Assembly (NCBI GenBank): GCA_965649205.1
Contig: CBFGJV010000013.1
Location: forward strand, 10,566-74,565
Origin: a candidate division WOR-3 bacterium
GTDB lineage: Bacteria; Hydrothermota; Tepidihabitantia; Tepidihabitantales; Tepidihabitantaceae
Length of the DNA: 64,000 nt
Direction of reading: 5' to 3'
Below, one piece after another: positions 15,506 through 64,000 of the stretch. Position 1 is the stretch's first letter. Each line of letters opens with the position of its first letter. A program made the translations under genes and the position numbers. The notes beneath the pieces were generated by a model, which saw only the letters and a program-made list of their open reading frames with translations, was not told the DNA's origin and made no database searches.

Positions 15506-16873
15506 TTAAGTAGCGTCGTTCCACAGTCTGACAGAAAATTCCTTTGCTGCTGCCAGTGCCCGCTCAGATAAAAGTCGCTTTTTCTCCCGTCCTTTTGCTT
15601 TGGACTCCAGCGGCGGCAACAGGCCAAAGTTGGCATTCATCGGCTGAAAACTTGGCACCCTATCTTCTGTGCTTGTAGCAGAACTATTATCTTCGTTCTC
15701 ACAACCTGTGCCAGCTACATAGAGTAGCAGGCTTCCCAGCATCGTTTCCTGGGGTGGCACAACCGGCTTCAGGCCCCGCACCCATCTGGCCGCATTAGTA
15801 CCCGCGATCAGTCCGGCGCCGATTGACTCTACATATCCTTCTACCCCGGTCAGTTGTCCGGCAATGAACAAATCCGGCCGCGCCCGAGTCTGCAAAGTAG
15901 GCAAGAGAACCTTTGGCCCGTGCAGATACGTATTCCTGTGCATCGAACCATAGCGCAGAAATTCAGCCTTCTCCAAACCCGGGATCATTCGGAACACCCG
16001 AGCTTGTTCGCTGTACTTCAACCTGGTCTGGAAACCAACCAGGTTATACATCGTGCCGGCGGCATTCTCCCGGCGCAACTGGACAACCGCAAAAGGTCTC
16101 CTGCCTGTTGTCGGATCGAACAGGCCTACCGGCTTCATCGGTCCGTACGCCGGCGCCAGCCTGCCCCTTCTGGCAATCTCTTCTATGGGCAGACAGCCGG
16201 CAAAAAATTTCTTCTGCTCAAACTCGTGTGCCGGATGCAATTCCGCCTCGAGCAATGCTTCAATGAACCGGTTATATTCCTCCTCCGTCATAGGACAATT
16301 CAGATAATCCGCTCCCGCGCCGTAGCGCGAACCGACAAACACCCGGTTCATATCTACAGACTCGGCAGTCACAATCGGTGCGATGGCATCGTAGAAGAAT
16401 AAACTTTCTGCTCCCAGAAGTGTCTGCAACTCCTCTGCCAGCGCAGGCGACGTCAAAGGTCCGGAAGCAACAACGCAAACCGCATCCTGAAAACCCGGAC
16501 GCGAAAATTCCTTCACTTCCTCTCTCACAACTTCTACTCCTGCCCGGTTCAACTCTGTCTGCACCTCGGCGGAAAACCGCCTGCGGTCCACCACCAGGGC
16601 TCTGCCGCCCGGAATCCGCGCCCGTTCTGCACACGCAAGCAGAACCGAACCCAGAATCCGCAACTCGGCCTTGAGAAGTCCGTGTGCGTTATGGGGCTCA
16701 TCTGACTTCAAGGAATTGGAACAGACCAGTTCGGCCACATCTCCGGTCTGGTGCGCCTCGGTCATCCTCACCGGCCGCATCTCCCAGAGCCGCACCGCCA
16801 CGCCGTGGCGGGCGCATTGCAAAGCTGCCTCGCAACCTGCCAGCCCTGCGCCGATAACCGTCACGCGGTCCAA
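15506..16873 (-). CDS. trmFO: Folate/FAD-dependent tRNA m5U54 methyltransferase TrmFO
   Basis: VIGAGLAGCEAA, ELVCSNS, FFYDAIAP, GPMKPVG, NLVGFQT, GQLTGVEGY.ES, FQPMNANFG. Confidence 0.96.
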   Translation of the reverse strand: MDRVTVIGAGLAGCEAALQCARHGVAVRLWEMRPVRMTEAHQTGDVAELVCSNSLKSDEPHNAHGLLKAELRILGSVLLACAERARIPGGRALVVDRRRFSAEVQTELNRAGVEVVREEVKEFSRPGFQDAVCVVASGPLTSPALAEELQTLLGAESLFFYDAIAPIVTAESVDMNRVFVGSRYGAGADYLNCPMTEEEYNRFIEALLEAELHPAHEFEQKKFFAGCLPIEEIARRGRLAPAYGPMKPVGLFDPTTGRRPFAVVQLRRENAAGTMYNLVGFQTRLKYSEQARVFRMIPGLEKAEFLRYGSMHRNTYLHGPKVLLPTLQTRARPDLFIAGQLTGVEGYVESIGAGLIAGTNAARWVRGLKPVVPPQETMLGSLLLYVAGTGCENEDNSSATSTEDRVPSFQPMNANFGLLPPLESKAKGREKKRLLSERALAAAKEFSVRLWNDAT

Positions 16874-17310
16874 AGAGTCAAATCTCCTTCTACATCAAGA
16901 CGTGCCGTCCAGAAACTAGGAAGGCGGCCGAGGTATTGTTCTCGCACGTCGCCCACCCAACTATGGCAGCGGTTTTAGGCTCAACCGAATAGGCGCGCAC
17001 AAGCGCAACCGAAAGACGCAACACCGCCGGCACAGGGAAAGTCTGCCGCATGCTCATGCCCTCAGTATCGGTGAATTCTTTTATCCGTCAATGACCTGAC
17101 CGTTCCTCAAGGGCGTGCTGGAACACCTATTTGGTATTGTTTACGGTTCAGCGGCATAGGGACGAGTTAGCCCGAAAAAGTGTGCAATTGTCTTCATCTG
17201 CGTAATCTGGCTGGCAGGAGGATAGCTGGGAGTATGGAATGCTGGCGGAAAGTTGCCTGCTGCCCGAGGGAGTTTTGACTTGGCAGGGAGGGAGGTTAGC
17301 ATATGACTGG

Positions 17311-18825
17311 ATGAATACGGGAAAGTTTGTGGCAGTGGTCTGGGCTCTGACGATCAGCGCCGGAGCCGGAACTTGGCTGGCGCAGGTTTTTCCAGAGAGC
17401 CCGGCCCAATTGGCGGGAGCAGGTCTTCCGGTGGTGTTTGTCGGGCCGGGATACTGGCTGGTGAAGCTGGAGGAGGGAGCGCCGGCTCCGAGTCTGCCGT
17501 TTAGGCTGTTGGATAGGGAGCCGGAAAAGAAGGAGTATGTGTATGTAATGTGGGAACCCGGGTTCGACCGGCGGACGCTGGCGCAGTACGGCACGTTGCT
17601 GCTTGAGGACGAGGGGGGAGCGCTTCTGCGTACCGGGGCAGAAGGAATAGAAGGGTTGAATACTTTGCCGGTGGAGTTGTGTGGTGTTGGTATGGAGCCC
17701 CTAGTGCCAGGGCCGCTTTTTGTGCCAGAGCCGCTGTCAGTGTCCGACAGTCTGATAGAGGAGCTGGTCGCCCGCGTGAGCGCAGAGAGTTCGGAGCAGA
17801 ATCTGGTGAGGCTGCGACAGTTCCGCACCCGATATTCCACGACCGATTCCTGTCGCCGGGCTGTGGAATGGATGCAGAAACGGTTGCAGGAGTACGGTTG
17901 CGACAGCGTCTGGTTGGAGGCGTTCCGGTCCGGCTATGCGCCGAATGTGGTGGGCAGGAAGCAGGGGAAGGTAAGTCCGCAGCAGGTATATGTGGTCTGC
18001 GGTCATATAGACTGCACCTCAGAGTCGCCCACTACGCTGGCACCGGGTTCGGATGATAATGCTTCAGGTGTCAACGTGGTGCTGGAAGCATGTCGGGTGT
18101 TTCAGGATGTGGAGTTTGAGAAGACGGTGTTGTTTATCGGTTTTTCAGGAGAAGAGCAGGGGCTGGTTGGCTCGGACAGTTTTGCGCGGCGGTGCAGGAA
18201 TCGGGGAGATTCAATAGCCCTGGCTATCAATTTTGATATGGTTTCCTATGCGCTTACCGATTCCCAGCTAATTGTCTATACCTCGTTTTTGCCGCAGACA
18301 AAGCAGTTTGCGGAGCTTTTTGTGGCGCAGGCCCAGAGGTTTACGGAGTTGAAGTGCCGGACGATGCTGCTGGATGATGCGGTTTCAGACCACTATTCAT
18401 TCTGGAAGTACGGATACCTTGCCATTCGCAGCCGATACAAGGACCGAACACCTAAATACCACACAACCGGGGATACTATCGGTCCCTTTCGGTATGTGAA
18501 CTGCGGCACGAATAATTTTCCTATGCATGTGGAGGTAATCAAGGCGCTGGTGGCAACGGTGGCCAGACTGGCCGGAGCCTATGTGCCGGTAGCCGTAAAG
18601 GAACGCGGGACGCCGTATGTTGTCGGTTTTGAGTCCGGGCCGGGCGTTGTGCGGGGTGAATTGGGCAGGCTTACCGAGCTGGGGCCGGGCTGGCTTTTGG
18701 ATGCTACCGGCAGGAAGGTGCAGGAGCTTGGTTCTGGCAAAAGCGAGGCGGGAAGGTTGAGTCCAGGCGTGTACTTTGTCTGGCGAGGAAGAAAGAGTAT
18801 GACAAAGCTGGTGGTGGCGGATTAG
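17311..18825 (+). CDS. Secreted M28 family peptidase with a degenerate T9SS-like C-terminal domain
   Basis: Signal peptide; GHID, PGSDDNASG, GEEQGL.GS, SDH, YHT..D; C-terminus LLDATGRKV..LSPGVYFV..TKLVV. Start position uncertain. Confidence 0.88.
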   Translation: MNTGKFVAVVWALTISAGAGTWLAQVFPESPAQLAGAGLPVVFVGPGYWLVKLEEGAPAPSLPFRLLDREPEKKEYVYVMWEPGFDRRTLAQYGTLLLEDEGGALLRTGAEGIEGLNTLPVELCGVGMEPLVPGPLFVPEPLSVSDSLIEELVARVSAESSEQNLVRLRQFRTRYSTTDSCRRAVEWMQKRLQEYGCDSVWLEAFRSGYAPNVVGRKQGKVSPQQVYVVCGHIDCTSESPTTLAPGSDDNASGVNVVLEACRVFQDVEFEKTVLFIGFSGEEQGLVGSDSFARRCRNRGDSIALAINFDMVSYALTDSQLIVYTSFLPQTKQFAELFVAQAQRFTELKCRTMLLDDAVSDHYSFWKYGYLAIRSRYKDRTPKYHTTGDTIGPFRYVNCGTNNFPMHVEVIKALVATVARLAGAYVPVAVKERGTPYVVGFESGPGVVRGELGRLTELGPGWLLDATGRKVQELGSGKSEAGRLSPGVYFVWRGRKSMTKLVVAD

Positions 18826-62413: not shown

Positions 62414-63601
62414 ATGAAGATAAAGATTTTAGCGCTGGTGCTGGTTTGCCTGATTGCGCTGGCAAGGGCGGAGTTTTCCGGCCGGACCGTGGTCCAGGTG
62501 GAGCAGGATGTGCCGCGCCAGATGAATCTGCAGGGTTTCTTGACCGACAATCAAGGTAATCCGATTAGCGGAGCACGTCCAGTTACATTCAGAATATATT
62601 CCGGTTCTGCGCTGAAGTGGGAGGAGACCCAGACGTGCACAGTGGTGGCAGGGTTGTTTCATGTGCTCTTGGGCAGAGTCGTATCGTTGCCTGATTCCGT
62701 ATTTCTGCCGGGCAGCGTGCGCGAGTTGGAGCTGGTTCTGGACGGGCAGCTTCTTTCACCGCGGGTGGCGCTGACCAGCGTAGGTTTTGCCTTCCGGGCT
62801 GGAGCTGTGTCAAGACCTTTTTCGCCACCGGTGGCCAGCGCCGAGATAGCGGATGGTGCGGTGACGATGTCCAAACTGAACGATGCCGGGGCTGAGACTG
62901 GTTATGTGATAAAATGGAACGGGTACGAGTGGCAACCTGCGCCGGATGTGGCCGGAGGACCGCCCAGCGGCGCAGCCGGAGGCGACCTTTCCGGCAGTTA
63001 TCCCAACCCTACAGTCGTCAGACTGCGGGGGAGGGAAATATCCACCACCACGCCAACGGACGGCGCAGTTTTGTCCTATGACGGATTGCGCTGGGTACCG
63101 CTCAAGCCGGACGGAGATGTGAGCGGGGAAATAGGTGCTTTAAAGGTGACCGGGCTGCAGGGGCGGGCAGTGTACAACACTACCCCCTACACCGGTGAAG
63201 TGCTTACCTGGTATTCGGGCAGGTGGGAACCAAGACCTCTGGGCGGAGATGTGAGCGGATACGCCTACGACTTGCGCGTAACCGGTTTACAGGGCAGGCC
63301 GGTTTCCAGCACTTCTCCCAGTTCCGGTCAGGTGCTTACCTGGTATGCGAGTCAGTGGACACCCAGGTCCTTGCCGGGTCAGGACCAGTTTGGTTCAGTG
63401 CGTCTAGAGGATGGGCGCGCCAGGGCGACTCTGAACGAGGATATGCGGCAGAGGGGAAAAGCTGGATACTATGTTTTTGTACAACAGACAAGGGGAGAAC
63501 CGGTACCAGTGGTGGTACACAAACATGAGGGTTGGTTTGAACTGCTAGCCCCGACCGGAACAGACGCAGAATTCGATTTTCGCGTCAGTACGGCAGAATA
63601 G
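62414..63601 (+). CDS. Secreted fibre-like protein with three 44-aa repeats
   Basis: AAGGAGG SD; signal peptide; VP..MN.QG.LTD..G.P N-domain; repeats GD.SG......V..L.GR.....P..G.VL.....W.P at 132-nt period (62981, 63113, 63245). Confidence 0.85.
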   Translation: MKIKILALVLVCLIALARAEFSGRTVVQVEQDVPRQMNLQGFLTDNQGNPISGARPVTFRIYSGSALKWEETQTCTVVAGLFHVLLGRVVSLPDSVFLPGSVRELELVLDGQLLSPRVALTSVGFAFRAGAVSRPFSPPVASAEIADGAVTMSKLNDAGAETGYVIKWNGYEWQPAPDVAGGPPSGAAGGDLSGSYPNPTVVRLRGREISTTTPTDGAVLSYDGLRWVPLKPDGDVSGEIGALKVTGLQGRAVYNTTPYTGEVLTWYSGRWEPRPLGGDVSGYAYDLRVTGLQGRPVSSTSPSSGQVLTWYASQWTPRSLPGQDQFGSVRLEDGRARATLNEDMRQRGKAGYYVFVQQTRGEPVPVVVHKHEGWFELLAPTGTDAEFDFRVSTAE

Positions 63602-63646
63602 AACAGTTTTACCAGTTTCTTTTCCCTTTTCTTTTTCCTTCGGCGT

Positions 63647-63727
63647 AAAATTGCTCGGTCCGGGTGCACCTCGCGGCGCACCCGGACCAAGAGCAAAGGA
63701 GGCAGAGATGCTTTTTCCCCTTTCCCA
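63647..63727 (-). ncRNA. Candidate small RNA, copy 1
   Basis: Minus strand TTGCAA-N17-TAGTCT (63762-63734), conserved core with CCTCCTTT, then a GC-rich hairpin with a GCGA tetraloop and short U run. Confidence 0.55.
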
Positions 63728-63860
63728 ACTGTTAGACTACCAAAAAAATACGATGGTTGCAAGTTTTTTTGCTTTTTGGTGATAAAAAGGCCGGCCTGGA
63801 CCATAGACAGCCCAGGCCGGTCAGGAAGGAGCAAAGGAGGCAGAGATGTCTTTTCCCCTT
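63691..63860. repeat. Direct repeat of 32 nt at 138-nt period
   Basis: GAGCAAAGGAGGCAGAGATG(CT/TC)TTTTCCCCTT at 63691-63722 and 63829-63860 (30/32 identical). Confidence 0.95.
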
Positions 63861-63862
63861 GT
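63784..63862 (-). ncRNA. Candidate small RNA, copy 2
   Basis: Minus strand CATAAT (63873-63868), same conserved core, then a CCGGCCTGG..CCAGGCCGG hairpin followed by TTTTT. Confidence 0.55.
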
Positions 63863-64000
63863 CATTTATTATGACGCAGACAGACCAGAAATGGTTGCAT
63901 GTCAGAAATTTTGCTCCGAAACGGTGAAGGATTGGGGATTATCACCCGGCAGGTAGGCGGGCTTCAGATTGTGAATTCCCCAGAATAAGTTAGTGACGAC

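Follow-up and report, generated by a model that had tools for sequence, protein, structure and literature searches.

What could two tandem units with nearly identical cores, each complementary to a ribosome-binding site and start codon, be doing in the intergenic space between an exported-protein gene and a TtcA-like gene of an uncultured WOR-3 bacterium? In the window (the whole analyzed stretch of 64,000 nt, whose right end is the end of contig C13), the 32-nt cores of these units (63691-63722 and 63829-63860) are identical at 30 of 32 positions and spaced by 138 nt, and the motif ATGGTTGCA is found at an equal offset in both (63753-63761 and 63891-63899); recomputation returned the same figures as the initial annotation of this DNA. 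We consider it fairly probable that the array encodes two sibling small RNAs (sRNAs) that are induced by an ECF sigma factor and repress translation, independently of Hfq, by covering ribosome-binding sites (RBSs).

Organization of the Locus

The array is flanked by a plus-strand gene of 395 aa (62414-63601) and by the final 33 codons of a TtcA-like PP-loop protein gene on the minus strand (63902-64000), which is cut by the contig end and lies upstream of unit 2 on the same strand. The TtcA-like identity was assigned via the same-genus genome G001, where the best match of the orthologous protein is TtcA (NF007972), below the cut-off. The convergent left neighbor has a signal-peptide-like N-terminus, belongs to a family with multiple copies in related genomes, and gave no significant Pfam match; it contains internal repeats, the number of which varies among relatives. 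A pyrimidine-rich plus-strand tract (63600-63645) is located between its stop codon and the hairpin of unit 1. A small gene with a FlgD/T9SS-type tail (L002:942-1484), missing from the host genome (G000), intervenes between the exported-protein gene and the array in G001, G022, and locus L162.

Read on the minus strand, the units have a common layout, (G/C)AACC-N16/17-GTC(T)AA, followed by approximately 25 purine-rich nucleotides, the seed CAUCU(CU)GCCUCCUU, and a GC-rich hairpin. In unit 1, the ECF-type −35 box TGCAACCA (63754-63761), which corresponds to ATGGTTGCA on the opposite strand, and the −10 box AGTCTAA (63732-63738, 18 nt past the AAC) precede a predicted sRNA of ~81 nt (63647-63727), whose ends were assigned from the promoter and from the hairpin with its U-run. 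Its seed (63691-63711) consists of the anti-AUG triplet CAU, CUCUG, the anti-Shine–Dalgarno (anti-SD) element CCUCCUU (63702-63696), and UGCUC, and the 3' GC hairpin (63647-63696), with a GCGA loop at 63671-63674 and a UUUU run, is a likely intrinsic terminator. In unit 2, the −35 box TGCAACCA (63892-63899) is located 3 nt past the stop codon of the ttcA-like gene and is followed by the −10 box CGTCATA (63870-63876), a second predicted sRNA of ~81 nt (63784-63865, ends likewise inferred) with an anti-AUG plus anti-SD seed (63829-63848, anti-SD at 63840-63834), and a 3' GC hairpin with a U5 run (63784-63820), which appears terminator-like from the terminator scan and folding.

ECF-Type Promoter Motifs and the Presumed Cognate Sigma Factor

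The motif ATGGTTGCA, which the initial annotation had listed while overlooking its resemblance to a −35 box, reads TGCAACCAT on the minus strand, and GTC(T)AA is located 17-18 nt past its AAC in nearly every unit. According to the respective reports, the hallmarks of ECF promoters are AAC at −35 and CGT at −10, many ECF genes being autoregulated (PMC8103513), and the sigma-E promoters of Fusobacterium nucleatum consist of AAC and GTCWAA (PMC9546586). On these grounds, ATGGTTGCA is the reverse complement of a putative ECF-sigma −35 box, and the RNAs would thereby be tied to a specific stress sigma factor. No sigma-70 promoter was detected at the window units on either strand by a simple scan.

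Six genes of the sigma-70 family are present in G000, five of them of ECF size. A homolog sharing 65% identity with the ECF sigma of the host groups with a protein annotated as 'candidate division WOR-3 bacterium', in agreement with the likely WOR-3 affiliation of the host. One ECF gene on contig C1, located before a gene for a zf-HC2 anti-sigma factor, carries the motif just upstream; among the 44 genomes of the family there are 29 orthologs of this gene, and the motif is found 5' of all 29. A matrix built from 13 sRNA promoters exceeds 10 bits 5' of 29/29 ECF orthologs, 60-132 nt before the conserved core, and in 0/29 cases in each of two control windows. A matrix derived from the 29 ECF promoters, in turn, reaches at least 8 bits in 11 of the 13 units that had been found without a promoter term, whereas only 5 of the 336 CCTCCTT sites in G000 pass it, two of these being the window units themselves. 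Built from ECF-gene promoters only, this matrix gives 22.4 bits for unit 1 and 12.2 bits for unit 2. The exceptions are the G005 unit, with a degenerate box (5.7 bits), and the second G022 copy, which is devoid of the ECF motif and looks sigma-70-like by eye. Since ECF sigma factors are often autoregulated, the C1 sigma, rather than another of the five, is the presumed reader of the sRNA promoters. As judged from these promoter sequences, transcription of the sRNAs and their induction by the ECF sigma are very probable, and the motif common to the units and the putatively autoregulated sigma gene would place the units among the ECF/sigma-E-dependent sRNAs.

The top six motif sites in a scan of G000 include both window units (which belong to the training set of the scan), the leader of a DUF2089 operon, hsp20, the ECF gene, and one intragenic site. 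The analysis thus provides this ECF sigma with a well-defined promoter consensus and a predicted regulon of modest size. The predicted regulon sites in G000 (C1 ~66245, L262:1392; C12 ~56167; C2 ~84182; C8 ~51219) would cover its own operon (the anti-sigma gene and two further genes), hsp20, the DUF2089 operon, which encodes small membrane proteins, and an AAA-ATPase-like gene, the G015 ortholog of which carries the same ECF motif. The sRNA was detected in 10 of the 29 genomes with an ECF ortholog versus 0 of the 15 without it (p 0.008, a value confounded by kinship); the remaining 19 of the 29 have the ECF ortholog and no detected sRNA copy.

Phylogenetic Distribution and Genomic Context

Even when up to 6 of the 32 core positions are allowed to mismatch, the 2.15-Mb host assembly contains no copies beyond the two in the window. 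In the 44 genomes of the family, DNA search combined with seed patterns and two models recovered 16 units, distributed over 10 genomes. Two units each were found in G000, G001, G015, G022, G031, and G035, and one each in G005, G013, G021, and G027. The promoter-plus-seed pattern additionally retrieved 103 metagenome loci, 7 of them with the extended seed; all 7 are followed by a hairpin with a folding energy of at most −26 kcal/mol, whereas the other 96 reach −23.8 kcal/mol at best. The element GCCTCCTT is invariant in the alignments (A4 and A5), with CAT located 2-5 nt upstream, whereas the purine-rich 5' part is variable and the hairpin differs among homologs in both sequence and length. As the initial annotation noted for the two units, hairpins are retained without sequence conservation.

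Units recur at two genomic positions, behind the ttcA-like gene and in front of uvrA, and are otherwise scattered. Such positions could mean that the units act in cis and were duplicated by chance, either terminating the ttcA-like gene or serving a downstream gene as an ECF promoter with a leader or attenuator; the start of unit 2 only 3 nt past the ttcA-like stop codon and five homologs that precede uvrA in the same orientation fit this explanation. However, uvrA has a TTGACC/TATACT-like promoter of its own past the hairpin, and in the window the array faces a convergent gene, so that a cis leader would have no gene to lead. Moreover, the neighbors differ among members while the seed is invariant, which makes the array independent of its flanking genes, and tandem pairs in which each unit has its own promoter recur (G000, G001, L244, L234, and L162/L198). 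We therefore regard an origin as cis elements as very unlikely and retain the interpretation of the units as stand-alone sRNA genes.

Several further elements were observed alongside these units. A second kind of unit with an ECF promoter, a core ending in UACUCCUCGG, and a GC hairpin is found at L402:923-973 (minus strand; G035 C161) and L403:708-758 (plus strand; G021 C92), where it adjoins a short-chain-dehydrogenase-like gene in convergent orientation; the G035 unit stands in tandem behind a main-family copy that has diverged, and this kind of unit was not found in G000. Another family of the class (G213, G204, and G205; L087, L102, L103, L104, L083, and L084) has a distinct ~38-nt repeat in several copies per genome, which shares the purine-rich core, is bounded by a terminal inverted repeat of its own, and is possibly REP-like. 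In six genomes (L377-L381 and G000 C10 ~15990), uvrA is apparently leaderless, with its TTGACC/TATACT-like promoter ~8-13 nt before the start codon.

Outside the family, no convincing member was found in 26 genomes searched with model R1, 88 searched with model R2, and 228 searched with the strict pattern, the filters of these searches being strict enough to miss diverged seeds. The phylum-wide strict pattern produced four matches outside the family, none with the seed and fewer than its reversed-pattern control; the GTDB-wide pattern, run on a set that may not include close relatives, produced eight matches with one genuine member; six seed matches in viral contigs included none with a hairpin; and a loose promoter-plus-CCTCCT pattern gave noise at chance level in 132 genomes. 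An exact seed match in G002 proved to be an ordinary RBS and was discarded.

A scan against Rfam 15 yielded no known family: the five matches in window positions 62500-64000 are all far below the gathering thresholds, and among 14 homologous loci only tRNA passes, BjrC68 (25 versus 39 bits) and SorX (23 versus 47 bits) being weak. The literature searched contained no description of an sRNA in WOR-3. The sRNA family is thus likely undescribed, as far as these sequences tell, while the kind of regulator that it represents is already familiar. The initial annotation had suggested either an undescribed tandem sRNA family or an antisense/small-peptide system; homologs, individual promoters, hairpins, and the lack of an Rfam match argue for the former, that is, a family of tandem sibling minus-strand sRNAs with an anti-SD core. 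It would give the uncultured WOR-3 phylum a candidate sRNA family and, in the ECF sigma, a predicted regulator of it.

Folding, Strand Preference, and Putative Terminators

The predicted RNAs are more stable than their shuffled counterparts, with z-scores of −6.0 and −3.3 for the minus-strand 86-nt segments and −4.2 and −3.0 for longer segments (0 and 1 of 200 shuffles were as stable); the plus-strand segments are likewise stable (−4.9 and −3.5). Both hairpins are more stable on the minus strand (−38.5 versus −34.1 and −24.2 versus −18.2 kcal/mol), and the GCGA loop and the U-runs are found there, in agreement with the strand preference proposed earlier. Among 19 hairpins of the family, chosen for an energy of −22 or better, the promoter strand folds better in 13 cases, equally in 2, and worse in 4, and GNRA loops occur on it in 9. 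The suggested terminator-like character of the hairpins was recovered by a simple scan for hairpin 2 (63820-63791, minus strand), whereas hairpin 1 was not called. The U-tails are clear in the window and weak in many homologs (1-5 U in 8 nt).

Comparison of the orthologous unit 1 hairpins of G000 and G001 revealed two compensatory changes and a one-sided G-C/G-U change, the whole loop being different; the compensatory count was matched by 127 of 500 shuffles and is not significant alone. Family-wide, the hairpins do not align, and model R1 accordingly holds just five pairs. The pairing of both variant core positions in a plus-strand stem, described in the initial annotation, is not a family-wide feature. 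The anti-SD is predicted to be mostly paired in the window units (unpaired probability 0.20 and 0.32), the range being 0.20-0.95 over 22 units. Selection on the purine-rich 5' part for masking of the anti-SD found no support: pairing exceeds that of the median shuffle in 9 of 22 units, and a single unit of the 22 falls in the lowest tenth.

Predicted Seed Pairing and Candidate Targets

The end of the seed resembles the host 16S 3' tail CCUCCUUU. In pairing to the 224 AGGAGG start regions, the real seed was reached by 1 and 2 of 150 flank-shuffled seeds, whereas each flank alone is weakly better than random (3-9 of 60 shuffles reach it). Alternatively, the ECF-induced RNAs might act as decoys or sponges, the partner of the 16S-tail-like seed being a protein or some other G-rich RNA rather than the RBSs of mRNAs. 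The resemblance to the 16S tail, the failure of specific targets to emerge from the duplex and seed-site searches, and the lack of detectable Hfq and ProQ in five of five genomes are compatible with this role; on the other hand, the conserved CAU is positioned where a start codon would pair, and the advantage of the real seed over its shuffled versions at AGGAGG sites speaks against it, even though each flank contributes weakly. A decoy function hence seems improbable, and repression by base-pairing of the predicted sRNAs with other mRNAs is, judging by seed complementarity, probable.

The RBSs with a full AAGGAGG are enriched about 2.5-3 times on exported-protein genes of G000. Signal-peptide-like N-termini are encoded by 50 of the 88 AAGGAGG genes versus 148 of the 650 genes with a weaker SD (1518 genes of at least 100 codons, p 3e-10), and by 52/88 versus 189/650 in an any-start control, figures that come from crude scripts of our own for gene calling (1625 genes scored, the ECF gene being missed) and for a hydrophobicity-based signal-peptide test. 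A marker that does not depend on start-codon calls agrees: a FlgD/T9SS-type tail domain is found at the C-terminal end of 128 of the 1625 called genes, and 24 of these have the full AAGGAGG versus 84 of the 1497 others (p 1e-6), the remaining 104 tail-domain genes being without it. Genes that are not signal-peptide-like constitute 53 of 108 AAGGAGG genes and include Hsp20 and, by eye, EF-Tu and ribosomal proteins.

The predicted duplexes give a less uniform picture. No enrichment for exported proteins was observed among the 25 best (6/25, p 0.81), whereas 30 of the best 100 are exported (p 0.046), and signal-peptide-like N-termini were observed at 14 of the 25 non-sRNA loci among 30 of 63 seed matches. 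The recurrent target candidates, namely the gene of a small membrane protein in the DUF2089 operon (G000 and G015) and exported proteins of the left-neighbor family (G000, G015, and G022), do not exceed the AAGGAGG baseline. Seed-like sites are as numerous in five genomes without a detected sRNA (31, 22, 19, 3, and 11) as in five carriers (6, 26, 11, 5, and 15), and thus there is no sign of co-evolution between seed and targets. The top seed duplex genome-wide falls around the start of a gene from the CRISPR RAMP family (G000 C31 ~16365-17370, L331) and is probably due to chance. That exported or envelope proteins are the main targets is conceivable, though we lean slightly against it.

Since exported proteins are ~3 times over-represented among the full-AAGGAGG genes, SD strength itself could serve as a class label, with the seed complementing the strongest generic RBS of the lineage (AAAGGAGG, a purine spacer, and AUG) instead of particular mRNAs. 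This extension is possible but rather unlikely; if true, a single Hfq-free mimic of the 16S tail would hold down much of the exported proteome whenever the ECF system senses stress.

With respect to protein partners, neither Hfq (PF17209) nor ProQ (PF04352) was found in the five carrier genomes analyzed (86-98% complete), which sets the units apart from the Hfq-dependent sRNAs of enterobacteria. KH_KhpA-B was found in all five, and Jag_N was not found in the search of carrier genomes. KhpA/B may be considered a candidate partner in place of Hfq.

Reading Frames Opposite to the Seeds

Both plus-strand ORFs reported in the initial annotation are present, one of 24 aa (63708-63782) and one of 36 aa (63846-63956), and both were judged non-coding. 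They had been offered as possible small-peptide genes, i.e., a type I toxin–antitoxin system in which SD-led plus-strand ORFs are translated and silenced by the minus-strand RNAs. An antisense RNA over a toxin SD indeed has this geometry, SD and ATG are kept in all examined units, and the end of the first ORF is mildly hydrophobic. Against this, the corresponding ORFs of homologs range from 9 to 88 aa and share nothing past 2-4 codons, with an SD-ATG spacing of 3-5 nt; the orthologous unit of G001 encodes an unrelated 13-aa peptide; and no Pfam match was obtained for the mini-ORFs, so that a conserved short hydrophobic toxin is not seen. Furthermore, no plus-strand sigma-70 site was found by the scan, the first ORF crosses the promoter of unit 1, and the second overlaps the 3' end of the ttcA-like gene. 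We give almost no credence to this proposal.

The perfect plus-strand SD and ATG, together with the convergent layout at the ttcA locus, could also suggest a cis-antisense RNA that acts against read-through from the convergent exported-protein gene by covering the SD-AUG of that transcript. This scenario is highly unlikely, given that members before uvrA and elsewhere face different opposite-strand neighbors and that the antisense ORFs are unconserved. The plus-strand SD-ATG is best understood as the opposite-strand reflection of a putative anti-SD and anti-AUG seed.

Proposed Mechanism and Comparison with Known Systems

We propose that a stress ECF sigma would switch on two sibling ~80-nt minus-strand sRNA genes, each from its own ECF-type promoter, and that each predicted RNA would end at its 3' hairpin. 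The sRNAs would then base-pair in trans over the SD and start codon of their targets and block translation. A promoter motif like that of the stress sigma gene, combined with a complement of the RBS, makes it likely that the translation of some mRNAs is damped under stress. The sRNA pair would thus constitute the non-coding arm of the ECF stress response, acting on strong RBSs.

Tandem sibling sRNAs with a shared seed are exemplified by LhrC1-5. LhrC1-5, as well as OmrA/B, PrrF1/2, and AbcR1/2, have other regulators and sequences, and no Rfam match to them was obtained here. The latter three resemble the present array in their head-to-tail paralogs with a common seed and divergent promoters (PMC4211561). 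The initial annotation had also pointed to cuckoo RNAs. The cuckoo RNAs CcsR1-4 of Rhodobacter are likewise tandem siblings with an anti-SD motif and are stress-induced, carry CCUCCUCCC in two hairpin loops, and are processed from one RpoH-driven DUF1127 transcript (PMC8034643). In contrast, the units analyzed here have a single CCUCCUU outside and 5' of one strong hairpin, an ECF promoter motif per unit, and TtcA-like, UvrA-like, or exported-protein genes as neighbors instead of DUF1127, so that they do not fit the definition of cuckoo RNAs; LhrC gave no match in the Rfam scan.

The predicted regulation is closer to that of sRNAs under ECF control. MicA, RybB, and MicL are Hfq-dependent and have a seed layout of their own. 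They differ from the present units, which gave no Rfam match, come from a host where Hfq was not found, and have an internal anti-SD as the seed. What they have in common with them is the arrangement as stand-alone sRNAs under an ECF stress sigma that form its repressing arm, here that of E. coli RpoE (PMC8103513).

The nearest counterparts are FoxI and FoxJ, the sigma-E-dependent sRNAs of F. nucleatum, for which repression of envelope mRNAs was demonstrated (PMC9546586, PMC11005410), whereas it is inferred for the units described here. The likeness comprises an AAC/GTCWAA ECF promoter common with the sigma gene, a C-containing seed, and a host without Hfq or ProQ and with KhpA/B-type proteins, KhpA/B binding FoxI in F. 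nucleatum (PMC11039985). The seed of FoxI resides in a linear stretch, and here it is located 5' of the hairpin. The WOR-3 units differ from FoxI/J in their full anti-AUG plus anti-SD seed, in being paralogous siblings that are often arranged in tandem, and in sequence, with no match in the Rfam searches. ECF stress sigmas with a repressing sRNA arm are known in Proteobacteria and Fusobacteriota, and the present units would extend this arrangement to another Hfq-less lineage.
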